DNA from: Spirogloea muscicola | Taxonomy: Eukaryota | Length of the DNA: 64,000 nucleotides | Assembly: GCA_009602725.1 (NCBI GenBank) | Contig: WELB01000023.1 | Span: forward strand, 733,977 to 797,976 | Direction of reading: 5' to 3' | Notes under the pieces: model-generated | What the model saw: the letters and a program-made list of their open reading frames with translations, nothing else | The model's database searches: none | What the model was told of the DNA's origin: nothing | Part shown: piece by piece, positions 3,920 through 63,100 of the stretch | How positions within the stretch are numbered: position 1 is the first letter of the stretch | Layout: each line of letters opens with the position of its first letter | Made by a program: the position numbers and the translations under genes

Positions 3920-4099
3920 GGCGGCGCCGCAGCCGCCGCAGCGCGAGGGGTGCCGAGCAAGTTGTGCACTGCGCCGCGCGGTGAGGACTAGGAGGCGAGT
4001 GACCAAGCGAAGGAAAGCGGCTTCTGATATGAAAGAAGCGGAGCTCGGGTTGGCCAGGTGGCGGCGCGCCACCGGCGAAGCTGACCCGGCCCCTCTGCG

Positions 4100-7000
4100 A
4101 ACGAGAGGCGCCTTTCCGGCGGCCAGTCTTTCTGACTTGCGGTTACTATCGAGAGGTTACGGAGAGAAGGCGCGCGGGGCGCATGAATTGAAAAGGGAGG
4201 CCAATTCAAGCCAATACATTGTTCAGGCAGAGTCGAGTGCAGACAAACTTACTGAGCGATAGTTCCTACGGGCAGTATTTTGGGAAAAGTACTTTGGGAA
4301 AGCGCTTGTCGGCCCCTGTTTAGCAGGGGTTACTGAGTAGTTAGTAGCTGCTTTGTTTCTTCTTGTGTGCTTCTTTCTTAGTGCTTCGCCTTAGTGCTTC
4401 GCCTGGCCCCCTTCTTCTTCTTGGAGGTTGTCGAGTGCCGCCCGGTGTTCGGGCATCAATTAGTGACCTCTATGTGCTGACTCGTGGTTACTGAGCGGGT
4501 CAGCTTAGCAGCAGGGTGACGTACATTTGTCAATGTGCTTACCTTTGTACTTGGCCACACATGGCCCTCCATCTCTTAATACACACTCCTTGCGTTCAAC
4601 AGCGTCGAGCGCAGCGCCATCGCCGAGGAGCTGCGAGCGGCCTTCCCGTCCCTCATCCCCTTCTTCCGCCTGGGCTACGGCCAGCCCAGCGACCTTCTAT
4701 GCCGGACAGGGAGTGGCGAGATGGAGACGCTGCAGTCGAGGACGGGCACACGCCAGGCGGATCCTCTAGCAGGGTTTTTCTTCGCGCTGGCTCACAGCCG
4801 CGCTCTCAGGGCCACTGCGGCGGCGCACCCCGGCGTCCTTCTGCCGTCCTACGCCGACGACACCACGCTCGTCGGCAGCCCGGGGGAGGTCTCGGCAGCC
4901 ACCGTCACCTTCCAGCAGCAGCTGGCCGCCCTTGGCATGACCATCCGCCCGGAGAAGTGTACCGCGTGGTCGCCGCGTGTCCTCCCTGCCGCCTTGCCCC
5001 TGCCGCCTGGGTGCCAAACTCCCCCAAGCGGCCTCACCATCCTTGGGGTCCCGTTCGGCACGCCAGCGTTCGTCGACGGGCAACTGCGCGTCCGCCTTCA
5101 GGAGCACCTCCAGCCAGTGGCCCGCCTCCCCGAGCTGCAGGACATGCAGCTGGCGCTTGCCATGCTCAATCGATGCATTGTGCAGCGTCCTCACTACTTG
5201 GCGCGGACGACCCCTCCCTGCCCCGCGGTGCTGGCGGCCTACACCACATTCGACGCGGGGGTCATGGAGGGCGCGGCGGCCCTCATCCGCCACGATGGCT
5301 TCCTTGCCTCGTCAGCCGCTACGCTCCAGGCCACACTGCCCCCTGGCCAGGGCGGCCTCGGCTGCCGCTCGCTCGCGCGCGTCTGCAGGCCAGCATTCCT
5401 CGGCAGTTGGGCACAGGTCGCCACGTCGGTGGCGCAGCGCTTCCTCCATGATGGGCGGCCCCTGCTGCAGCAGGTTGTGGAGGAGGTGGCGACTGGCTCG
5501 CTGCCTTTCCAGGAGGCCCTCCGCTCAGCCCAGGACGGGTTACTCGCGGAGCATCCGGCCCTTGCAGAGAGCGTGGTCCCCTTCGCTCACCTCGCCCACA
5601 CCTCCGACTCGCAGGCGCAGGCGCGATACATGGCTGCTGTGGACAAGGCGACGTTCACGGACACGCTGCAGCTCCTCCCCGCAGGCGACGTGCGCGGCCG
5701 TGCTCGGCTGCTGTCGGCCGCCTCCCCCGGCGCGGCAGCCTGGCTCTCTGCGCTCCCACTGTATGATGCGCTCAGGCTGCCGGACGAGCTGTTCCGCACG
5801 GCCACGCATCGCCTGCTGGGCCTCCCCCCGCCCTGCCTGCTGGGCGTGCTGCAGTGCGAATGTGGGGAGCGGTCGACGGACCCGGCGGAGCTGGCGGCGC
5901 ATCTCCTCCGCTGCGCCACTGGAGGCGAACGAACAGCTGCGCACGACCTCTTGCGTGATGCTATGTTCGGGATCTTTCAGGAGGCGGGCTACACGGTGGC
6001 GATGGAGAACGCCTCGGTCATGCCCATCCTCGAGAGGGCTGACGGACACCATACGCGTCGTGTGGACCTGGTGGCGTCCACGCCGGGAGGTGGCGCGCGG
6101 ATCATAGCCGATGTAGTCACCACCGATGTGGTCGACCGCTCCAACCTGGGGCTCTCTGCCTCGCGGGCCGGCCACGCTGCCTCGAAGGCCGCTCGCTGCA
6201 AGGCGGCCAAGCACTCCGACCACCCACCTGCCGACGAGTTCGTCCCCTTGGCGGTGGACGTGCACGGGGCTCTTGGGTCCCAGTGGCTTGACCTATTGGC
6301 TAGGCTTGCGCGGCGGGCTGTGTCCCGCAGACGCGGCGAGCCAGCCGACTTCAACGCCGCGGGCTCGTGGGCTCAGGTATATCGGATGCGCCTCTCTGTA
6401 TCCCTGCAGCGGTCCATGGCCCACGCTCTGCATCTGCGAGCTGGCCGTGCTCTCGCTGCGGGCTCTGGCTTTCGTCAGGGTGATAGCTTCCCGGCAGCTA
6501 GTCTGTCGGATCTGAGGCTCCTCACTCGTACTTATTGAGTGATCCATCCTCCCCCTGTTTTACCATTGCATCCTCAGGCCCCTTTGTAGCTGCTCACCGC
6601 TCTTAGGCCCCTCTGAACCTTTGTGAACTCTTTTTGGGCTGGCTTTTCGCAGCCCTTGCCCCCATTGGGAGTGCCACTTCTCTCTTCTTCTTGGGCTTCT
6701 TGTACTCTGCTCATTCTTTTTTGGGCTGGCTGTTCCAGCCCCTATCCTCAATGGCCGAGCTCTTTCTTCTTTTTGGGCTGGCTTTGTCAGCCACTCTTCT
6801 CTACGGGCGCGCTCTAAGTCAGGCCTCCGGCTTTCGTGGCGGCGCTCCAGCTCCCCAAGTTAGCTTGTCAGATTTGTTTGTGCTCACCCGTGGGTACTAA
6901 TGTCATCTTAGGTACCTTAGATTAGGTCTCCGTATTATGTAGCATTGTTTAGTCTGCACTCGACTCTGCCTGAACAATGTATTGGCTTGAATTGGCCTCC

Positions 7001-7131
7001 CTTTCAATTCATGCGCCCCGCGCGCCTTCTCTCTACGGGCGAGCACATCCGCTTGTCGGCCCCTCAGGACCTTTCTTCTCGTCATTGGCCTCCCATTCAT
7101 TTTTATGCGCCCCGCGCGCCTTCTCTCGTCA
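4100..7131. repeat. Nested cluster of retrotransposon 3'-end fragments (at least 4 families) in the PITH/LIP divergent intergenic region
   Basis: Peptide termini ASLSDLRLLSRGY (about 4123-4160), LSRGY* (about 4319-4336), SDLYVLTRGY* (about 4462-4494), SDLRLLTRTY* (ends 6538) and SDLFVLTRGY* (ends 6900). Direct repeats 4303-4317/7050-7064, 4413-4424/6683-6694, 6798-6809/7030-7041 and 7077-7084/7124-7131. Confidence 0.9.
4592..6682 (+). mobile_element. 5'-truncated CRE-like non-LTR retrotransposon (family A): RT, CCHC zinc knuckle, restriction-like endonuclease (RLE)
   Basis: Open frame 4592-6538 begins mid-RT at AFNSVERSAI and contains GTRQADPL (QGDPL-like), YADD, LGVPFG, GGLG, CECG-x10-HLLRC...HD, RRVDL...ADVVT...KAAKH and FVPLAVDVHGALG. 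An in-frame TAA lies just upstream at 4577. 3'UTR is about 145 nt. Confidence 0.92.
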
Positions 7132-7264: not shown

Positions 7265-9875
7265 ATGGCGGGCGGCCCGGCAGCCGCCTCCTGCGCCGCG
7301 CCGCAGCCGCTGGCGCGCTTGTCCTCGAAGGCTCAGAACAATTGGCGCCGTGTGGCCTGCGCCACTCTCACCGAGGAGAGGGCTGCGCCGAGCGCCCGCC
7401 CTGCCGTGGAGACGGCTGGCGGCCGCGACGCTCCGGCAGTGACAGCGCCACTCCGGGCCGGTGAGCTACTTGCCACCGATCTCGGCTCCTCAGCTCCAGC
7501 AACTTGTGAGACGGCCGCTTTGGAGGCGAGCTGCATCATTCACTGGCACTGCCTGCCTTCATGGTCTGCCTACTAGAACTCAGCGTCGGCGTAGCAACTT
7601 GATACCACTAACGCGCTAAGATTGGCCTTCGCGAGCTTTATGTCACACAAGTCCTGCTGCTGCTGTCACATTTGACGAATAGAGAGGTGGATGTCATTGC
7701 AACCCCTGCAACTGCTTCGATGTGTGGTTGCACAGGCGGCGCCCCTGGAGCGGCGAAGAAGCCGGCGTGGCTCCGTCAGAGGGCGCCGCAGGGGGACAGG
7801 TATCAGGAGCTCAAAGAGTCGCTGAGAGACCTGAACCTCAACACTGTCTGCGAGGAGGCCCAGTGCCCAAACATCGGAGAGGTGAGTCGATCCACCTTCG
7901 CTCGAACAGCGGCTGACATTGACCCGGATGCGGGAACACGCTGATCACAACGATGCTCATCCTTGGCGCTCCATAATCTAGTCACTGGCAAGGAGCTGAT
8001 GGCTTGCTCTGTTGTTGGGACCCCCTTATCTTGTGGCAGTGCTGGAACGATGGCGGAGGCCCAGAAGGGGAGGGTGGCGGCGTGGGCACAGCTACAATCA
8101 TGTTGCTCGGCGACAGCTGCACACGGGGGTGCCGGTTTTGTGCGGTGGCGACAAGCCCATCCCTGGCGCCTCCTGATCCCATGGAGCCTGAAAATACTGC
8201 ACGCGCCATTGCAAGATGGGGGTGCGTGCAGACTTTGCAGCACAAGCTTTGAGTCTTGCGCGTCTACAATGTCAGCATCAAAATAGTAGTGTACATTGTG
8301 ATCATCTACCAGGCATTATAGAGTTTCGGAAGGATGCCCAGGAGCATTGTGCTCCCTTTTCAACTCAGACACTCCACAGCAGAGTAGCCTGCATCATTGT
8401 TTTCATTTCCACTACTATATGAGCAAGTGCAGGTAGCTCTTACCATGCGGTCAGTCAGGATCGAGGCGCCTTTGTCCTTTTTGTGAGCTGCGCTTCAGCC
8501 TGTCGTACTTGAAGCCTGAGCTTAGGTTGCTTCTCTGCAGGGTTGGTTATGTGGTGCTAACAAGTGTAGATCGCGATGATTTGCCTGATGGGGGAAGCGA
8601 GCACTTTGCACGAACAGTACGCACCTTGAAGGTACACAATCGGACCATCTAATATGGTGCCTCTATGTCCAAATATGTATTGTTTATCTAGCAAACAGTA
8701 TTTCAAGTCTAAGGTACCAGCATGCTTGTAGTCTCTGTGCTGATGTGTTGAAAGTCTTCTGAGGGTTCTGTTGCACTTTGGTGCAGGCAGAGGCACCGCA
8801 CATACTGGTGGAGTGCTTGGTGCCTGATTTTCGAGGTGATATGGACGCTGTCATCAATGTAGCCCAGTCAGGTCTCGATGTCTTTGCGCACAACATCGAA
8901 ACCGTTGCCAGGCTGCAGCGACCGGTTCGTGATGCACGAGCAAAGTAAGCCGCTACCTGTGCTAATTGCTGTGCTGCAAGTCTTGCATGCCTCCCATATC
9001 ACAGGCGCTTCCCAATAAAGATGGGTGCTCTCGATCTAGTTAAGGGCTTTACCATGTCATCAAAGCATGACCTCTGAGAAGGACAGCTTGCTACATGCAG
9101 GGGTTCTGTTGTCACAAAGGCAGGCCTTGGGGGTTAGCTCTATTGACCAGCCGCAAATTGTGTGCATGGCAGTTACGAGCAGAGCTTAGCTGTCCTCAAG
9201 GCAGCCAAGAAATGCAAGTTGGGGATGGTGACCAAGTCCAGCATTATGCTCGGGCTTGGTGAAAAAGACGAGGAGGTCAGGCAGACAATGCTGGACCTGA
9301 GAAGCGCGGAGGTGGACATTGTCACACTCGGTCAATACCTACAGGTTTGCCTCTCAAACAGGCTCTTTCACATTGTATCATCTCCACAAGCAGGCACCAT
9401 CGATTTCCTTGATGACTAGGTAGGCTTACAGTCGTGCTGCTGAGGTTGTTCCATGCTAGATAAATTGACCTTGTTCAAAGGAAGGACACTGCTCATATCC
9501 TTCTAGGACACTTTGACCAGCTTTTTCCGTCACCTGAAGAAGCTCTGGATGTGTGCAGCCTACTCCCTTACACTTAACTGTCAAGGAGTTTGTCACACCG
9601 GAACATTTTAAGCATTGGCAGGAGTATGGCTTGTCAATTGGCTTTCGCTACGTCGCCAGTGGCCCCTTGGTAAGATTGACTCTTGTTCTATACATGAGTC
9701 TGAGAAGTCACACGGCCAGTATGAGTGATTCTTGGCTAGCAACACTGCTACATGCAACATAACATAACGGTGCTGCTTCTCCTCCTGTGTGCAGGTCCGA
9801 TCCTCGTATCGGGCAGGTGAATTCTTTGTGGAAACAATGCTCCGTGGTGGCCATGATTACACCACACATAAGTGA
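7265..9875 (+). CDS. LIP1: Lipoyl synthase (radical SAM), probably the plastid isoform; 8 exons
   Basis: [72 protein letters not shown]; Ala/Arg-rich transit-like N-terminus. Confidence 0.95.
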
Positions 9876-20914: not shown

Positions 20915-23215
20915 CGGAGAATTGAGTGTGTATTGGGTGCTGGAAGGTCTGAGTGGCTAACTACAAAGGCAAGCACATTGACGAATGTACACATAGGGGG
21001 TCCCAGCGAGCCCGTATTTCTGCTGCCGGGGGAAATCCCGTCAGCGGTGACGCTGACCCAGCCGCTGACGCTTCGGGCCGCCTGCCGAGCTGAGCGACTG
21101 CAAGACTCAGATGGGCAATGCGCGCATGAGATGGAAGCAAACAGCTCGTCCGTTGTAAGGCAATGGCTGTGAGAGGCCAGCCCAGAGGAATGTACAAGGG
21201 CTGCAAGGGCAGGAAGCCGCTAAAAGCAGGATTCTATTTGCCGTGACTCCTGCAAGTGGGCTCTCAATAAACTCTAGTCAGCAAGTGCGGATCAGAGTGA
21301 GTAGAGAGCGAGAAGCGTCCCCCTGAGGTGAAAGGTAGGCCAAGCCGAGCACGTCCAAGCGCTGCGCACTTGACTTAGTCGCGGATCTCGGTAACGAGCA
21401 TGATATCCGACACCTTTATTCGCCTTCATCACTTGACACTTCCATGGAGAAGAGAGAGCGCGATTCGCGTATATTGAAAAGGGAGGCCAGTTGGGGCGAT
21501 GATTATGACGGCAAGACCCGAGGCACCCCACGTCCCCTCTGCAGCCTGCCATGACGGCCTTCAAGCCGGGACCGGCCCCCTGGCCAGCCCCACGCACCTG
21601 CGCTGGCTGTGGGCCTTCTGGCTCGGAGGCCCGTGGCCAGCCCAGAAGTGGCTGTGCAGCCCATCCTGCTGCGACCATCGCCGGCCTGCTACGGTAGCAC
21701 CGGCCAACACGCCGTCACTGAACGATGCGCTAGCGGCCATGCACAGAGCTGTGCTCCCTCTCCAAGCCCAGGACCCTTGGATCATCACCATCCTTGAGCT
21801 TCAGCCAGGCAGGCCTGCGCAGCCAGTCGCCTACTCGTAGGCCCAGCCTAATGCTTGTGTAGCCTGCTCGCAGAGCCCTGAAACGTCAATTTCATATCCA
21901 GCACAACTTCGAGCTCGTGCCATTGCCGTCCATGCATGCATCGTTCACTTACAGCGCGGCCAGGCCAAGACGCAATTATCTGGTAGCGCAATGAGTGAAA
22001 GTCTTTTCGTCCGCCCAGATGCGTGGGCCACTGCAAGAGGTGATGCGCACCAGGTCGACGTGCCATGTGCCCGTCAGCAAGTCGGCACGGTGCCGTGGAC
22101 CTCTGCACGACTTGGTAGGCAGCCTCTTGGAATAGGCCGAAGGTGCCGTTGCAATAAAGCACCGTAATCGGCTATTGCTCGTGGCCATGCTGCGCAGCGC
22201 AGCATGTGCGCCGCAGTATAGGGTGGACGATTGCGCTTCTACAAGGACCTACAACGTGCTCATTGCGTGCTCACCACATGGAGAACGTTGAGGTCGCAGG
22301 CGAGATGGAATTGAGCCTCTTGCTTATAGCGGGCGGGTGGCAAGTCCCCAGCCTGTGCCCCCTGTACCGTAATCCTAAAGCTCCAGGCTTGGGTTGGCAA
22401 GGAAGCCTTATAGATAAGGCTATGCTGGACGTAGCCTTAATGAGGAGCGAACACTTTTAGAACGATGTAATTCTTCCATAAGGGCGATGGCAATGTCGTG
22501 CCGCCCATTAGACTGAACCAGGTCCAAAGAGGTCAGAAGGCGAGCACCACTCAGGAAAGAAAGGGACCACTAAGGATGGCGACTCACCTGATCAGCAGCC
22601 GCAAGTCGGAATGTCTAGCAGCCAGACAACAAGTAAGCTCTTCTGAAGGGGCGATGGCCAGGAAAGGCCAGCCCAAAGGGAGTTGACAAGGTCCACAAGG
22701 GGCCTGAAAGAATAAGGTAAACCAAAGACACAGCTCCTTACAAAGTAAGTAACAGCTTTCTCAATGTAAGACAGTAGCTGTGAGAGGCCAGCCCAAAGAA
22801 AAATGACTCTTCCAGTAGAGGGCGATGGCTGTCATTGAAGAAGTGGCACTCTCAATGGGGGCAAGGGCTGCAAAAAGCCAGCCCAAAAAGAATTGACAAA
22901 GGTTGTCATTGGCCAAAGCATAGAAAAGAAAGAAGAAAACCCAAAGCCCAAAGGAATGAACAAGATCGGAGAGAAACGCTCTTTCCATGTAAGGCAGCTT
23001 TTGTGAGAGGCCAGCCCGAGGAATGTACAAGGGCCGGAAAGGGCAGGGCTGTGAATGGCCCGCGAAAAGAGAGAAGCTCTACTCAAGGGGGCGATGGCTG
23101 TGGAAACAGGCCCAATGCAGTAAAACAAGAGAAGCAGCCCCACGGCGGGCGAGGGCTGTAAAGGAAATTGCCGCCCATGTAGAAGTGGCTCTCCCGCTAT
23201 AAAAGCCAGCCCGCC
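20915..23215 (-). repeat. Cluster of CRE-like retrotransposon fragments, including a decayed endonuclease-region copy and a tandem array of 3' ends
   Basis: Family-B 3'UTR at about 20915-20992. SDPHLLTRVY* at about 21263-21300. Degenerate FGLFQEA...ADGH..R.DLV at about 22050-22145. SDLRLLIR at about 22585-22612. Repeated GGCTGTGAGAGGCCAGCCC-type units at 22640-23215. Confidence 0.8.
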
Positions 23216-39861: not shown

Positions 39862-40275
39862 GCGGAATGGAGTGTGGATTGACTGATGGAGAAAGAGCTC
39901 GCCCATTGAGGATAGGGGCTGGAACAGCCAGCCCAAAAAAGAATGAGCAGAGTACAAGAAGCCCAAGAAGACGGGGGCCAGGCGAAGCACTAAGGCGAAG
40001 CACTAAGAAAGAAGCACACAAGAAGAAACAAAGCAGCTACTAACTACTCAGTAACCCCTGCTAAGCAATCGCAGGTCAGAGAGGCTATGTTCCTGGAAGG
40101 AGGGCTCCAGTGGCCAAGTGACATGGCAAGCGTCGACAGACGTGCATGACCTGCTGCTAAGCTGACCCACTCGGGGAACCACGAGTCCGCACGTAGAGGT
40201 CGCACTAATGCCCAAATACCTGACGGCAATTGACAAGCCCTTTGTGCCACCAGCTAAAGCTCGACCAGAAGCCTA
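39862..40275 (-). repeat. Family-C 3' end nested in a family-B 3' end
   Basis: SLSDLRLLSRGY* plus UTR (about 40097-39890) is near-identical to 4319-4424 joined to 6695-6766. It interrupts the family-B UTR between GCCCTCC and ATC...CACACTCCATT. Confidence 0.85.
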
Positions 40276-40435
40276 GCAAATCCACTTCGTGGTTGGGACA
40301 GTACAAGGCAGCAAGTAGTGGTGACTAGTCGATGCCCGAAAACAGCATATACCGCGCGAGCCCAGCCAATCTTCAGCTGCACCGGCGCTCTCTCGCAGCC
40401 CCGCCGTCGGCAATGCTGCAGCCCGCGCCGCGGGC

Positions 40436-42874: not shown

Positions 42875-43455
42875 AGGACGGAGGGCCTGAGTGGCCAAGT
42901 ACAAAAGCAAGCACAATATTAAATACATCACCTGCTGCTAAAGTGACCCGCACAGTACCACGAGTCAGCACGTAGAGGTCGTTAATTGATGCCTGAATAC
43001 AGGACGACAATTCACAAGCCCTCATGCCACCAGCGAAGGCTCGACTAGCTTTCTGGTGCAAAGCATGAGCCTAAAAGAATGAACAAGGTCTGCCAGGGCC
43101 GGAAGGCGAGGGGACGAGGGCGAAGGCGAAGGCGAGCAAGCGAGGGCTCTGACCAGCCAGCCCAGAAAATGGACAGGGACAAAAGTGGGATACACCAATC
43201 CCGACGAACTTCCAGAGAGAAATCAGAAGCAGCAGCTAAAGCGCGGCCTGCATCGCCTGACTCCGGAGAGCTGTTTCCCGTCGCTGACTCGTAGTTACTG
43301 AGCGGGTCAGCTTAGCAGGGTACGATTCTCCAAGACGTCAGCAAGTGGGCGCTCCATTAACCTCTGGTCAGCAAGCGAAACCTCAGCTTTGCTTAGCAGC
43401 AGGTGATGTACATCTGTCAATGTGCTTGCCTTTGTACTCGGCCACTCAGGACCTC
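42875..43455. repeat. CRE-like 3'-end fragments in both orientations upstream of the peroxiredoxin
   Basis: HQKASRAFAGG...NDLYVLTRG (minus strand, about 42880-43061). GCTGACTCGTAGTTACTGAGCGGGTCAGCTTAGCAG (plus strand, about 43283) resumes at about 43391 after an inverted insert. Confidence 0.8.
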
Positions 43456-43657
43456 CATGACTCATCAACACCCGATATAATACTTTCTTCATCATTTCCC
43501 TTCTCTCTCTGCCCTACGTGAGCACCCTGACGTCTCAGCCTCCTTTTATTCTTCCGATTCTTTAATATCAGCAGCCGCTTTTGTTTTATCCAGCACGCTT
43601 CTTTATGAGCACAGCCGCGCTGAGCTGCCGTGCTTCTCCTACCCCGCCCTCCCAGCC

Positions 43658-50374: not shown

Positions 50375-50930
50375 CTTTCGAGGCCCCTTCGGACCATGTC
50401 CGTTCTCGTCGGGCTGGCTTTCCACAGCCCCTCGCCTTCTCTCCTTGTACAGTATTGGCATGAATTGGCCTCTCTTTCATGCGCCCCGCGCGCCTTCTCT
50501 CTTGGATTAGCTTACTTTACATTTATTGGCGCGCAGTGCCCAGTGGGCCCCTCGCGAGAGGACCTGGCCAGGTGACATGGCCTTCTGGGACCGAGAGCCC
50601 GTTTGCCGTTGGCAGTTGCACTAGACGCTGGCGGTCACCAATGGCAGCCTTCCGGCCCTTCTTCCGGCCCCTTCGGACTTTGTCTCGGCTTCTGGGCTGG
50701 CCTTTCACAGCCGTCGCCCCCGTTTGAGAAGACCGTTCTTCCGATCCTTTTACTGGTACTGGCGACGAGCGTCCTCCAGCTCACGTGCCCTGTTCGTGCT
50801 TCCCAGCTTGTGCTGGCTTGTCACCAAGTACACCTTACAGGTGGCTGTGAAAGAAGAGAGCTCTTGTGAAAGGCCAGCCCCAATTGAGAATGGACAAGGT
50901 CCGAAATGGTCGGAAGGGGCAAACGACCAA
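50375..50930. repeat. CRE-like 3'-end units upstream of SGF29
   Basis: GGGCTGGCTTTCCACAGCCC at about 50411; family-D end ATTGGC...CATGCGCCCCGCGCGCCTTCTCT at about 50454-50501; further units at about 50694 and 50843-50882. Confidence 0.75.
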
Positions 50931-53834: not shown

Positions 53835-54388
53835 AAATTGGCCTCCCTGTCCTTTGCTTCTCTCTCATTTGCATGCGCACCGCGCGCGCCTTTCTTCCAA
53901 AGTGGGCGAGGGCTGTGCAAAGCCAGCCCGAAAGAGGGAAGGCGCGCGGGGCGCATGAAATGAAAGAGAGGCCAATTCAAGCCAATACATTGTTCAGGCA
54001 GAGTCGAGTGAAAGAGAGAGTGACTATTCCAGTAGAGGGCGATGGCTGATTGGCCACCCCATGAACAGAAATTGACAAGGTCCGAAGGGGCCGTAAAGCT
54101 CAAAGCTGACTTAGGTCCAGCTTAAGGAGGGATCGTGTATTAGAAAGAAATGTAGGCCAAATGGCCAGGTACAAAGGCAAGCACATCTAAAAATCTACAT
54201 AACCTACAGCAGATTGACCCGCTCAATAACCACGGGTCAAAACATAAAGGTCACTACTCGATGCATGAATACTAGATGCCAGGAACGGAGCCCTTCTGCC
54301 ACCTACTAGAGCTCGCCCAGCTTTCTGGTGCAAGGCACTAGCCTGAGCACGCTGCAAACAGGCCGAAACTCGACGTCGCAAGAGCGAC
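53835..54388. repeat. CRE-like 3'-end cluster between GDCH and aldolase
   Basis: Family-D end at 53937-54009 flanked by GAAAGAG (53930-53936/54010-54016). Family-B-like LRRRVSACLQRAQASALHQKAGRAL...SDLYVLTRGY* on the minus strand at about 54388-54223. Confidence 0.85.
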
Positions 54389-54537: not shown

Positions 54538-55835
54538 ATGTCTTGCTACGTCGGGAAATATGCTGGTGAGCAGCGCAGCCCTGGCCGCGGCGAACTCGCG
54601 CCGCCATCCGCGGTGCAATCGGCCGCCTCCGCCGCCGCCCCATTGCGTCGCAAATGCTGGTTGTCTCGGAGACGCGACTGCCATTGGATTGCCTTCACGC
54701 CCTCGACGTAAAGCAAAGCTAAATAGGTCCTCCGAAGCGGATGCGGCCCACTGAATCGCCTCCTCGGATGCTGCACCGGACGCCGCAGAGGAGCTCGTCA
54801 AGAATGCCAAGTACATCGCGACGCCCGGGAAGGGCATCCTGGCGGCGGAACGAGAGCACGGGGACCATTGGGAAGCGCCTGGCCAGCATCGGCGTGGAGA
54901 ACGTGGAGGCCAACCGGCAGGCGTTGCGCGAGCTCCTCTTCTGCACGCCCGGTGTGCTGCCGTTCCTCAGCGGCGTGATCCTGTTCGAGGAGACGCTGTA
55001 CCAGAAGACCATGGCGGGCAAGCCGTTCGTGGACGTCATGCTCGAGGGCGGCGTCCTCCCGGGCATCAAGGTGGACCTGGGCGTCGTGGACCTGGCGGGC
55101 ACCAACGGCGAGACGACGACGCAGGGCCACGATGGGCTGGCCGGCCGGTGCGCCAAGTACTACCAGGCGGGCGCGCGCTTCGCCAAGTGGCGCGCCGTGC
55201 TCAAGATTAGCGACTTCGAGCCGTCGGAGCTGTCGATCCAGTTGAATGCGCAGGGCCTGGCGCGCTACGCCATCATCTGCCAGGAGAACGGCCTCGTGCC
55301 CATCGTGGAGCCCGAGATCCTGGTCGACGGCAGCCACTCGATCGAGAAGTGCGCGGAGGTGTCGGAGCGCGTCCTGGCGGCGTGCTACAAGGCGCTCAAC
55401 GAGCACAAGGTCCTGCTGGAGGGCACGCTGCTCAAGCCCAACATGGTGACGCCCGGATCCGAGGCCGCCAAGGTGGACGCCGAGACCATCGCCAAGATGA
55501 CCGTGCGCACCCTCCAGCGCACCGTCCCCTGCGCCGTGCCCGGCGTCATGTTCCTCTCCGGCGGCCAGAGCGAGGAGGAGGCGACCAAGAACCTCAACGC
55601 CATGAACCAGCTCCAGACAATCAGGCCGTGGACGCTCTCCTTCTCATACGGCCGCGCGCTGCAGAAGACCACCCTCTCGACGTGGGGCGGGAAGCCCGAG
55701 AATGTACAGGCTGCACAGCAGGCTTTCCTGGAGCGGGCCAAGGCGAACTCAGAAGCCACGCTGGGCAAGTATGGCGGCGGTGCAGGCGGTGCTGGTGCCG
55801 CTGAGAGCCTCCATGTGACTGGCTACAAGTACTAG
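54538..55835 (+). CDS. FBA: Cytosolic class I fructose-bisphosphate aldolase; apparent +1 frameshift near 54849
   Basis: [29 protein letters not shown], then after an extra [10 protein letters not shown]...GARFAKWR...VPIVEPE...[13 protein letters not shown]...GYKY*. Confidence 0.95.
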
Positions 55836-57172: not shown

Positions 57173-60100
57173 TTACTTGGGCGCCGTGGCATGCTTGTCA
57201 TCAATTTCTGGTAGGGGTATCTTCCAGTAATTCCACGAGTTGTAATCCTCCTGCAGGTATAACGGTACAGGGTCCAGAGATGCCAAATGCTCAACAACTA
57301 CGGAAGAAAGACTGGCACTGCGACCTTCGCTTTAAAATATCCATTACCTAAGAGAAGTAGCTTCCCACTGGAAAGCAAGGTCACAACTATGTAATCTGCA
57401 TCAACTGCATTGCCAATTTTGACTGTGGTGAGTACACTTACAGCCTCAGCAGAATTGACAGGAGGGAACATATCGTCAACAAGGTCATGCAATGTTGTGT
57501 ACGACCTCACGTCCACTCGCTTGTTGACCACAATCTCTCCCTGCAATGCAGAAGTCCAGGTAGCAAGTGCCACTGTGAAAGCCCATACAAACTGCACAGA
57601 CCATAAAATCTTGCTGCCTATGCATGTCTTCTGCTTCCAAGAGCTTCAAGCTCTGCAATGGAGTATATGAGGCATCAACTGTACTGGGCACGACCCAGCA
57701 CTTCAGAGCAAAAGCTGCAGTCAAATACCTTGGGATTGATCGTATAGATCTTCCCCTTAGGAATCCCCACAGCCTCATAGCTTATTTCGTCAGTGTCGCG
57801 GTTTCCAAAACCAGCATAGAAAGGGTTGACATCATTTGGAAACAAAGCCCGAATCGCCTGCACAAGTGCACGTGACAACGGGTCTGAGCATTGACTTGAT
57901 ATTGCAAGTAGTCAGCTGCCCATAACCTGCCACCATAACAGCAGATTTCACAAGAAGCACCAAGGAGGACAACCGGTGATCAAGACACTGCTGCTCACCT
58001 GCAGGCAGTTGATCTTAAATTCGTGAGGCGCCCTTCGTATGACTGCCAGCACAAGAATCTTCATGAGCTGATCTGTGTAGCTGCCCTGACACACCTTTTT
58101 GCAGTAATCTTCGCACAGATGTATGACTCCAGAGGACTAGGATATGGGCCAAACTACAACTTGTAGTGATGCACAACCCACTTGCACTGAACTCTGAGGA
58201 GATACTTTTGGAGGTGAGCAAGGAGAACCTTCACGATAAAGAGACGGAAATAGCCCATCAGGCGATATTACGACAGGTCCTTCCGGCAAGCCCATGCCAT
58301 CCTGCAAGAGCTTGTCAGATACTAGACTTAGAGGAGCAGCAATGTACTTAGAGGGCACCTATTTATTGCCATGCATCTTTCATGAATGCATCTTTCCAGC
58401 CAGGCTGGATAGCTCACACATGTGCGCAGGAAACTGTATGGCAACCCGTAATGTTCAAGCAAGCAGCATCATGGAGGTTGTTGGACACTAACTTGTTTCA
58501 GATTAAAAAGAAAGGTACGAGTAAGGTAAGCTTGGGAGATAGCCCGTGCACTCAGGAACATGAATTCGTAGCCATTCTCCTGCAAGCACAGGTAAACGAT
58601 CTGAGCACCTCGATAGACCAGCACGAGCATCACGTAACATTGCCTGATACGACAACAGTCAAATGTGACAATGTGGATGTCACATATGCCATGCAAGAGC
58701 ACCAAGAACGTGCATGTGGTGCCTTCGTCTGTGCAAACTTATTTGCATCTGCATTTGACTAATCGATCGTCATCTCGAAGTGAATTACCTTAATAGCTGA
58801 GAAAAGGCGAGCCACACCCAGCTGAGACCAGTCCCTTCCAACTAGGGGCATCACTTGCCCAAGGAGGTCAGACCTGCACAGAGAGGTTCATCAGCAATGC
58901 CAGGCAACTATGTTTCTTGGGATTGTCTTGAAGTCCCACTTCATTGCATACATAAGAGCTCTAGGTGCTTTCACTTAAGCAAATTATCAGCAGTTGAGCA
59001 ACATGAGTACCTGGTTATTGTGCCATCCACGTCTGAAATGACTATCCTTGTTTTCCACTTCCACAGATACAATGATGCTTCAACCTGTGACAGCAACCAA
59101 CTGTGCTGCAATGAAATAGGATATGTAGATTGTCACGCAGCACAATATCTTGCACAGAAAAAATGACCTTTGGCACAAATAGCCGATACTACAACAGATT
59201 GTGATAGTGTACAGACCTGCTGGCGACCGAGGACGCGAGTGACGAAGTTAAAGTGAATGCAGCTCTTCCCCTCCTTCAAATTCAGCAATTTTAGCTGCTC
59301 CGAAGTTGGCAAGTAAGAACGCACTTTCCTTTTTCTGAAGTGGAATCCATTTCTTCCAGCGAGTAGGTCCTGTACAAGGGGACTGTCGTGGGCGGTCCCT
59401 GTCAAAAGAGCAACGGTATAACACGTAAGTCCAGATTACCCTCTACGAGGTGCTGCATCTCTTCTCTACACACTTACATTTGCCATCTTCTATTTGCTGA
59501 CTTCCCAGGCATCATGTACAATCAAGAATGGCTCATAGGATAAGACACAGCAACAAAGAATTATTGCTCCATGCTCCATGCTTACCAACAGCAGCCAGAA
59601 GTGCAGCTTGAGAGATTCGATCTGCCCGTGAGGGAGGGCTTCCAGTCCCTCCAAACGGCCAGAGCTTCCACTGGCTGCTTGCAGCAGCAGTCGGTCTCGC
59701 AGGCACGATCGCCAGTGCAGATGTGCTGGGTGCTTCTGGTTTCTCCACTGCTATGGAGCCATCTGAGGCACCATCTGTCACAGGGATGAACCTGCCGAAA
59801 GCAAGCATGCCCAACAGGAGGGGCTGCACCGTATGCCACGGATAATACTTGCCCCCAACTCTTACAACCAGCAAGTTGCTGGACGTCACCTCTCTGTAGG
59901 AGCTGACGAAATGCTCAAGTGTGACCACCTTGGAGGAAAATGCTGCTGCTGCTTCTTTCGAACCCATTCCTTCCACAAGTAGGTCTCTGCAGAGAGAGAG
60001 CTCCATCCCAGTGCCTGACAATTGACTGATCTCAGCTCCTGCACCAGCATGCGTCAAGTCACTTTCTTGTTCCTGCCCCTCCAGCATGTCACTATGCGAC

Positions 60101-63100
60101 ACTGGGCCAGGGGAATGGCCCATGTGCTCGTCCTGCAGGCCATCAAGCTTGTCTGTATCACTTTCTGCGTCTCCTGTACTACAGGTTTGCTGTGGAGCCT
60201 GAGGGTCAGCGATCTGCAATCTTTTACTCTCTGCAAGAATCTGAGCTGGCAAGTCATTGGACAGTTTTGCCAGTGAGCATCCTGCCTTGGCCAGACCTTC
60301 GGAGGACATGGGCAAAGAGCTCAGATCCTTGTCAAACGATGCCGCGGCGGCAGCAGAAGCTGCAAGAGCAGCAGCAGCTCCTGCGATTGCTGCTGCAGTA
60401 CTGGGACTCCCTGTGTAAGGAGACGAACCTCCAGCAGGACTTGACCGCAGGCTGGCTGCCTTCACAGCACTGCGAGGGCTGGAGAAGTGACGTAGCTGCG
60501 TGCTCTTGAAGTTGGGGCTACCTGCAGGTTGAGGTGTGGCTTTCCCATCACCATCAGGTGTTGAGTATCTCTCTTCTGGTGATCTTGGCCCTGCCATATC
60601 TGCTGCCTCTGTCTTGGTTGAGGGCGACTCACAAGGGCCGACTGCATGCTCCTCTGCTTCATCAGCCTGCTGCCCACTGGGCTCCGAGCAGGCCTGTGCC
60701 TGCTCCTCTTTGTCCTGCCCCTCGCTGTCAGCAACTTCACCAGAGTTGACATCTTCTTCCTCAATACACGACTCCAAGACTGAGTGCAAGCCATACTCCT
60801 GCTTCACCACTATGTCTCCTGGCATTTCAAGGGCAGAACTGGCTTTCTCATCCTCATCAAAGGTCCCTATACTAAGTGCATTATGATCTCCCTGTTGCTG
60901 GATGCTAGCCATGTTGTCATCTTCATGTGCAGGAACTTTTGAGTTGCTCTCAAGCGCTACACCATCGACTTCTGCACCCTCAGATTGTTCCTGGCTGACG
61001 ACCTCCTCACCTGCTGGGCCAGCATCATCGTGCCCAGGGTCACCATCAGAAGTCAAGGTTGTCACTGTTCCAACACTCTCCTCTACGGGCAAACCAGGCA
61101 GATCAGAATCACTGTGAATGCCAGTAGCTGCTTGTCGTTCTGTCTGACTCCCATCTGCTGCCTCGGTCTCTTCCTTGTGAGCCCCCTCCCTACCTTCTGC
61201 TGCCTCCCCCTCTGCCTGCAATGAACTCGTGCAATCAGGCCCACCATTCAATCGCCTTTCTCGTTCATCACCTGCAGAGCTGGGCAACTGTGGTGCTGCT
61301 GCCTTGGCCTGCTGCGCTGCTGCAGGACTGACCTCGGCATCCCGTATCATGGACTGGCCCATCTCAAGCAAGCTGACCCTGCAGCTCCTGAAACCCTCAC
61401 ATTCGTCATCGCTGAGGCTGGTCTCACACAAGCGCAGGTCCCGCGCGTGCCAGCCCTCAGCCTCTGTCTCTGTGCCCTGGCCGAGATCGCTGAGATTGCC
61501 GAAAGAGAAGTACCTGGACGATGTCCTGTTTAGTGCCAGAGCTCGAGCAGTCTCCTGTGCAACCTGCTGCCAGCTGCTGGGCGTGTCAGGCGATGTTATA
61601 GGAGACTCCCCTCTTGAGGTGGTCTCCAACGGCAGGGTGACCTCCAGCATCTTCCTGTCACTCTCAGCCTCGCTGGAGTACTTTCCAGTGGCATCGTCCA
61701 CTGGCAGACTCACCCGCTGCTCAGAGCCCTCTGTGCTTGCTTCATCACTCACTCGCCTCTGAACAAACGTGACATGTAAACTATGTTTTCCACTTACATC
61801 CCCTCTCCCTGAGCTTGTCCCTATCAACTCGCTTCCTTCTTCCTCCGCGGCCGATGATCTGTCCCCACGCTCGCCATGCTTCTGTGACTCCTTGTTGCTG
61901 CTCTCTGGCTCAGCTGTGTCATCCCCCAGGTCAAGTGGAAGCCCTCCCACCCGCAGAGCGCCTACCTCAGGACTGGTTGATGCTCCAAGCCTTTCGTCGT
62001 CTGCGACATTGGCAACCACTACCCGACCATCTACAGTCATAAGGACAAATGTCTCATCCTCCCCTGTGCTGCCTTTGGCCCCTGAATTTGCTTGTGAATT
62101 GGATGCCACGTCCTCCACATCCATCTCAACAGCAGCGCCTACACTCTGCCAAGCGCGAGACTCATCAGCAGTAGCAACCGAGGCGGCTAGCGTAGGTGGT
62201 GCACTTCTCCTTCTCTCATAGTCCCTCTTCTTCCTCCTGCCCTTCTCACTGGCAATCCACTTGCTGTCGAGGAGCTCAGCTACCATGAGTGCCCTCTCCT
62301 TGGCCTGCTCTGGAGTATCTGTTGCTTTCCCCCTCCTCTTGCCTTGAGCACCACCTTTTGAGTTTACTGGGGTCCGTGCTGCAGCTGCTTGCTCAGATCG
62401 GTCCGAGGCTGATGAGCCAGCCGAGGCCTGCTTGTCAAGAGGTGCGGATACAGCAGGACGTGACCTCCAGCCCCACCATCCCCAAGATTTTCGATCTTGC
62501 AGGTGCTGCATTGAACATTGCCAACAGTACAGCATCAGTACAGGTCTGCAATGCAGATGTCACAAGAGGTAACAGTATGCTGCATGTGCCTGTCAAGATC
62601 ACCTTTGCTGTCTCTTTGCCTTCCTTCTGCTGGCTTGCCTCCAGAAAGAGCTTGGCAGACATGGGAGCCTCCCTGCATATGCAGGTGACTGGACAAAGCG
62701 TAAGCGACGTGGCAGTGCATCTCTCCTGCTGCCAATGATAGGCAACAGTAGCAAGGCATTGCTTCATTCCAATATAACCTATGGCTGACCTTAAAGCAAC
62801 CGAAGCCTTCTCCACAACCTGATGCCACGCAAGCTCCTTTTCAATTTCCTGCTTGAGTTTCATATCCTCCTCTGTAAGGAATTCTGACATATTCACAGAA
62901 TCCACAGAGCTGGACCTGTCCCGTGCTCCCAATGCAGGCTCGTCTTCAGCAGCGACGACTTGTTCGGAAGTGCAGGCCTCCGCTTCCATTGGAGAGTCTG
63001 GGGCAATATCTGCGTCTGAAGACTCGCCTTCTGGATGGCGGAGGGCATCTGGCAGCTTCACAAGGTTCTCGTCCTTGCCACTCTGGACATCATCTACAGA

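Follow-up and report, generated by a model that had tools for sequence, protein, structure and literature searches.

Ordinary nesting explains a two-family LINE composite in Spirogloea muscicola at least as well as a template jump

Within a pile of LINE ends in Spirogloea muscicola, pieces of two families, here called B and A, lie between the two copies of a single 12-bp target-site duplication, and two further units, C and E, share a 15-bp one. Ordinary nesting explains B+A at least as well as a template jump, and both have precedent. Our leading reading, with a rough probability of 0.45, is that B and A came to share one duplication when two insertions hit the same TTC run one after the other; a template jump is possible but rather unlikely, read-through of a nested donor is less probable again, and other causes are very improbable. 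The odds for B+A and C+E are judgements and not computations, and the order of insertion is what we infer from families, nesting and duplications that are seen directly. The window is the whole stretch of DNA analysed, 64,000 nt of contig WELB01000023.1 (positions 733,977 to 797,976).

Layout of the pile

The window, eukaryotic and intron-bearing, includes a lipoyl synthase exon (7735-7881), and the pile at 4085-7127 is sited between two genes, with several related LINE families stacked inside one another. Element G holds an inverted D copy and C+E, C holds B+A, and E holds a D copy. The features of the pile, and two copies used for comparison, are as follows.

4085..4317 (+): host element G, 5' part; ORF end SLSDLRLLSRGY; broken by the inverted D copy; boundaries by eye
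4162..4247 (-): D 3' end within G; 4-bp duplication at 4157-4160 and 4249-4252
4303..4317 (+): outer 15-bp duplication, left copy, CGCTTGTCGGCCCCT
4318..4412 (+): family C, left part, 5'-truncated; ORF end and 3' UTR
4413..4424 (+): 12-bp duplication, left copy, TCTTCTTCTTGG, a TTC run; G4424 fits B too
4424..4589 (+): family B 3' piece; ORF end and 3' UTR, without the ATT(C) tail; CTTG at 4420-4423 and 4589-4592
4591..6681 (+): family A, 5'-truncated within the RT domain; hairpin and CTT tail in the 3' UTR
6683..6694 (+): 12-bp duplication, right copy, TCTTCTTCTTGG; C6682 is one letter out of register with the A tail
6695..6770 (+): family C, right part; 3' hairpin and tail; loose end at 6770 in run X7
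6768..6809 (+; start 6768/71): unit E, first part; C/A-like 3' hairpin end, 77-80% identical to C
6810..7033 (+): family D 3' end within E; own 12-bp duplication at 6798-6809 and 7030-7041
7042..7049 (+): unit E, last bases, beyond the D interruption
7050..7064 (+): outer 15-bp duplication, right copy, CGCTTGTCGGCCCCT
7065..7127 (+): host element G, 3' part; D-like end
26160..26842 (-): longest B copy in the window; codes for an endonuclease domain; runs past ACACACTCC; candidate 7-bp duplication
39890..40100 (-): unsplit C copy (empty site), inserted with a 4-bp duplication into a B-like copy

Both duplications are exact, 4413-4424 being identical to 6683-6694 and 4303-4317 to 7050-7064; random boundary pairs match over at least 8 bp in 0.1-0.3% of cases (20,000 draws per setting). 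The 12-bp pair splits C, whose two parts (4317-4419 and 6686-6767) share 98-99% identity with the unsplit copy at 39890-40067 (-), in which 9 of the 12 letters of the repeat are present. The first letters of this TTC run also match A's own CTT tail. A sequence-only reading of the window had placed a B 3' piece joined to the truncated edge of A inside the 12-bp pair, and C followed by a second unit inside the 15-bp pair. Both arrangements are seen: B abuts the start of A at 4591, and E, of about 50 nt, follows C, while the C copy at 39890 has no E after it.

The B piece (4424-4589) is 91% identical to B at 26169-26332. It had been said to end in ATACACACTCC as other B copies do, which is not the case: all five other aligned B copies have AT three bases past ACAC, where the 4425 copy has TT. 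ATTC occupies the tail position in three copies (26169, 20915 and the B' tail near 39870). Going by the tails of other B copies, the 4425 copy stops short of its predicted RNA 3' end. Nor are the composites strictly free of internal duplications: the matches around A and E (3 bp each) and around C (2 bp) are at chance level, whereas B alone is flanked by 4 bp of its own, CTTG, with a chance of 3.7-4.4% at 2 x 3 registers and 12-17% at ±2 registers. T4590 fits neither B, whose next base is A, nor A, which fits from 4591, and C6682 is an extra base under all four parses of B+A. An AT microhomology between the B tail and the A break point is unsupported, as the residue ahead of AFN is D, N or T in relatives and the window has TT. 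In the run contigs, B differs from the common B type by three listed substitutions and one indel; for A the difference is about 0.4%. The divergence of B reflects its source copy and not its age, because B must postdate its host C, which is 98% identical to another C.

LINE families and insertions in the window

Judged from sequence, A, B, C and D are sister LINEs with a reverse transcriptase (RT) and a putative restriction-like endonuclease of CRE/MoTeR-like motif. B, C, D and G have homologous ORF tails, about SLSDLxxLTRGY, and P0008 ties the ORF end of C to an endonuclease-coding LINE. A SINE identity was dismissed, the families being LINEs and B and C being tied to endonuclease-coding ORFs. 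In A, a frame open over 652 codons (4580-6538, +), up to the stop at 6536-6538, encodes RT, a CCHC knuckle and a restriction-like endonuclease motif. The start of A corresponds to residue 426 of its 1,068-residue relative P0009, which puts the truncation inside the RT; the truncated domain matches RVT_1 with E 1.5e-6 and 28.6 bits, just below the 29.6 cut-off, P0009 and P0010, relatives of greater length, reach 62-63 bits, and the RT has a YADD motif.

The C-terminus of A reads C-1-C-12-H-3-C-8-AHD-19-E-17-RVD-14-D, a knuckle and a PD-(D/E)xK-type endonuclease by motif match only. Compared with the CRE/SLACS/MoTeR pattern published as C1-3C7-8H3-4C9-10RHD/N..E..R/KPD..D/E (PMC12857005, in excerpt), the order and most spacings agree, the departures being a C-H spacing of 12, AHD for RHD and RVD for R/KPD; none of five relatives matches a regular expression of this pattern, so that it is a loose test. 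A PDB search with P0009 as query gave no matches. Hallmarks of non-LTR elements are present, namely 5' truncation, depth rising toward the 3' end and duplications of 3-15 bp. Strict site specificity of the CRE/SLACS/MoTeR kind is not seen, the 13 duplications differing in sequence and being mostly pyrimidine-rich.

Among named proteins, those nearest to A are gene models listed under Spirogloea muscicola (P0008, identical at 97% across 18% of the query), together with a Klebsormidium nitens cluster. Four annotated gene models (P0001, P0006, P0007 and P0008) look like patchworks in which the ends of several LINE families are combined, in some cases with host domains attached, and LINE piles appear to corrupt gene prediction in their genome. 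No further copies with flanks were found in JGI metagenomes with the B pattern, in GTDB genomes or in IMG/VR, and none was confirmed among the 119 stretches that a protein search of the JGI metagenomes returned.

Our census of the window comprises 17 tests with boundaries set by eye: two composites, the four internal cases above and 11 other insertions. The duplications of the latter measure 12, 9, 9, 8, 7, 7, 6, 4, 4, 3 and 3 bp; a match of at least 3 bp is thus present in all 11, four have 3-4 bp, of which the two at 3 bp do not exceed chance (12-35%), and the 7-bp one at 26841 requires a 9-base offset. By eye, nine of the 11 sites fall inside a copy of another family or at its end, the hosts of the remaining two (26841 and 21212) being ambiguous, and the ten sites measured lie 15-88 nt from the host 3' end. 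Landings at a boundary do happen, because a D copy (54010-53933) sits at the tail of another element with its own 7-bp duplication. Joints between families are frequent in X1, with at least 15 among the matches listed (304 more); those joining a 3' end to the interior of another family were dropped as evidence for jumps, since any nested insertion yields them.

Elsewhere A has duplications of 8-9 bp in two of two cases. Between a 9-bp duplication and the truncated edge (33643) of an A copy on the minus strand there are 8 extra bases (33644-33651), which resemble the reverse complement of the nearby upstream target, in a snap-back-like way. In two stretches on the same strand (22640-23210 and 33060-33650), 3' ends of 50-100 nt are packed head to tail; they belong to at least five hairpin-bearing families, and almost all ends in a pile share one strand.

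Piles of LINE ends occur at 269-656, 4085-7130, 20918-21215, 22639-23047, 25981-26870, 33011-33643, 39888-40300, 42877-43458, 50375-50916 and 53893-54383. Nine of these ten lie at most 400 bp from a GC-rich stretch with the look of a gene start (random mean 4.0, P = 0.0017), where some GC stretches overlap piles and the gene starts are mostly putative; promoter targeting or selective retention of piles there is possible. Other features of the window are a 59-bp inverted repeat at 34550-34726 (86% complementary, 59-nt spacer), possibly a small DNA transposon, and two long uninterrupted frames, for fructose-bisphosphate aldolase (54723-55835, +) and a lipin-domain protein (59533-62559, -).

Origin of the two composites

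Neither composite is a fixed consensus element, the alternative that the sequence-only reading had set against its own template-jump account: C is found without E (39890), and A continues upstream with non-B sequence. In our comparison with contigs of four runs, a match to 4591-5890 with 5 differences starts at letter 96 of record 9 in X5, whose preceding 95 letters are foreign to the window. Summed depth in X1, which is not copy number and of which just the step across B|A is used, drops from 458,710 in the bin with the B end to 29,436 at the A start, with 1,092,360 at the A 3' end and 77-108 in the last two flank bins. The RT of homologues also continues upstream of the break point of A; a protein search with A's own upstream sequence found two gene models, neither of the same subfamily there. 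The region is highly repetitive and the B|A junction is bridged by no contig among the 32 matches listed, with 20,103 more beyond the listing, as would fit a fixed composite, later recombination between copies or an assembly error; we nevertheless regard all of these together as very improbable, given the evidence above and, for assembly error, the lack of any overlap between B and A open to mis-joining and the exactness of both duplications. A 281-nt piece of A matches an X1 contig without differences at a depth of 5,413, compared with 31 for a flank piece, and for this reason the A subfamily looks young and multi-copy.

In the successive reading, A would first enter C, giving rise to an 11-bp duplication, its truncated edge joined through a TG microhomology of 2 nt, and B would next land at the edge of A, with the 4-bp duplication CTTG and a clipped tail. 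We hold this order tentatively. In an improbable variant B would come first, with an ATTCTT tail that overlaps a TTC run of 13 bp, and A would then enter the B tail without duplication and with loss of one or more bases. Deletions of upstream target are known at truncated R2 junctions (PMC2718515, in the text available), but the variant fits less well than A first and is weakened by the match of at least 3 bp in all 11 other insertions. Succession is supported by CTTG, which flanks B exactly; by the A-first parse, which assigns all bases at both B junctions, T4590 included; by the 3-4 bp duplications elsewhere in the census; and by the prevalence of nested or end-placed insertions, the frequent X1 joints and the short distances to host ends. 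It is weakened by the loss of significance of CTTG under register freedom and by census 3-bp cases within chance. Further, B must hit no more than a few bases from the edge of a young A (5 of 1,300 sites differ in X5) and its tail must be clipped, when D, A and C copies in the window seem to have precise ends; C6682 is unaccounted for, and the internal duplication of C+E is not above chance. By a rough estimate, two composites in one pile also exceed what boundary landings alone would give. No intermediate allele is seen, X5, X7 and X8 yielding no allele of the site because they leave its unique flanks almost uncovered.

A single event could give the same product in two ways. By a template jump, the RT of A would prime at the target, copy 2.1 kb, add one base and switch to B RNA near its 3' end, copying 165 nt before joining the target. 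This would leave one clean 12-bp duplication around two pieces of the same orientation, with one unassigned base at their junction, as observed, and agrees with the 8-9 bp duplications that A yields elsewhere; the extra bases at the 5' edge of the A copy at 33643 suggest that such enzymes add sequence there. Two- and three-part LINE chimeras within one duplication are described in Magnaporthe (PMC2104539, in part), as are "extra template" junctions of R2 in cells (PMC11371274, in part). Against it, B lacks its tail, whereas R2 jumps are end to end according to a title cited in PMC2912911; B is 5'-truncated, when the 5' partner of the chimeras in the portion of PMC2104539 at hand is a full-length cellular RNA; CTTG would have to be coincidental; and RNA ligation could also yield such R2 junctions according to their authors (PMC11371274, excerpted). 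The jump inference of the sequence-only reading withstands one of its own two refuting conditions, since B+A and C+E are not fixed elements, and is borderline on the other, as CTTG flanks B and such short duplications occur in these families; with the B tail clipped as well, the jump itself is unestablished. We consider it doubtful that RTs of co-active sister LINE families jump in vivo onto one another's RNAs to make single-event cross-family chimeras.

Read-through from a nested donor gives the same product as a jump and is a third route absent from that earlier account. A donor with B inside A (or C inside an E-type element) would be transcribed into one RNA spanning both, as in 3' transduction, and copying from the host 3' end would halt within the guest, in one event with no jump. 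Nesting is the rule here, which favours this route, but neither the B|A nor the C|E junction has a further match in the window at up to 4 mismatches and no donor is seen; for B+A it also requires an insertion of clipped-tail B and mobilisation of a 2.3-kb interrupted RNA. We judge it unlikely for B+A.

For C+E we lean slightly toward read-through, at a little under even odds, ahead of succession, which is more tentative, and a jump seems unlikely. The C tail is whole and overlaps the T/C-rich stretch of E ahead of the hairpin. The same kind of site hosts two other nested insertions (K in H and K in F), and since A, C and E have a hairpin in common, the E end could be a start point for read-through. 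A GGCTG/CAGCC stem lies about 35-45 nt from the end in 14 aligned 3' ends, A and C included; E has the motif too, and B and D fold otherwise. None of five pairs shows a compensatory change, so that the hairpin is a conserved sequence and not a proven structure. Recognition of 3' ends across families, which had been drawn from the composites, does not follow for B+A, as B is without the hairpin motif of A, C and E; a template jump there would not need it either, and extra templates of R2 in cells are almost always U6, an unrelated RNA (PMC11371274, in the part available). For C+E under read-through, such recognition is plausible.

If B+A is a true jump, this genome supplies many natural junctions with which to gauge in vivo template switching by an endonuclease-bearing LINE, a process for which U6 or WEIRD chimeras and the biochemistry of R2 are the main sources; cross-family jumping, if true, would be frequent enough to appear in a 64-kb window, and ORF and 3' modules could swap between families. 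If nesting or read-through is responsible, the case shows that a duplication shared by two families makes a poor criterion in genomes with piled-up LINEs. Of greater interest than B+A may be the piles of several families next to gene starts.

Comparison with known systems

Nested LINE arrays and LINE chimeras are both already known. In L1 3' transduction, read-through RNA takes the downstream flank along inside one duplication; here there is no poly(A) tail, and the copy ends at the 3' terminus of another element. Among the literature matches listed, with few subscription titles and partial texts, none concerns these algal families and none describes chimeras of two endonuclease-bearing LINE families, which is weak evidence of absence. 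Nested and template-switch insertions are pooled as uncharacterised in the accessible text of PMC2912911.

As in CRE, SLACS, MoTeR and Cnl1, a single RT is followed here by a CCHC knuckle and a restriction-like endonuclease motif (PMC9942834 and PMC12857005, both in excerpt), although the knuckle spacing and two motif letters differ (PMC12857005). Cnl1 of Cryptococcus forms tandem nested arrays (PMC9942834) and, like the present families, has mostly 5'-truncated copies and inserts in tandem orientation into existing copies. Unlike Cnl1, which in these excerpts nests one family in itself at telomeres, many sister families inter-nest here, and the piles lie between genes by GC-rich stretches (PMC9942834, PMC12857005).

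The MINE chimeras of Magnaporthe (WEIRD-MGL and WEIRD-MgSINE-MGL) and the mammalian U6/L1 chimeras resemble B+A in having two same-strand RNA-derived pieces within a 10-20 bp duplication, the 3' piece being a 5'-truncated LINE (PMC2104539, in part). The 5' partner of MINE is a full-length, recurrent cellular RNA, with 31 MINEs reported in that text (PMC2104539), whereas here it is a truncated, tail-clipped LINE piece seen once, and nesting can mimic the product.

The 5' junctions of R2 include microhomology, deletion, non-templated bases, snap-back and extra template (PMC2718515 and PMC11371274, in the portions available), and junctions here likewise show microhomologies of 1-5 nt, added bases and, at a 5' edge, an addition of 8 nt. 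R2 is rDNA-specific, with an upstream junction that in Drosophila is mostly blunt or deleted (PMC2718515, PMC11371274), whereas the insertions described here have duplications of 3-15 bp at varied, pyrimidine-rich sites.
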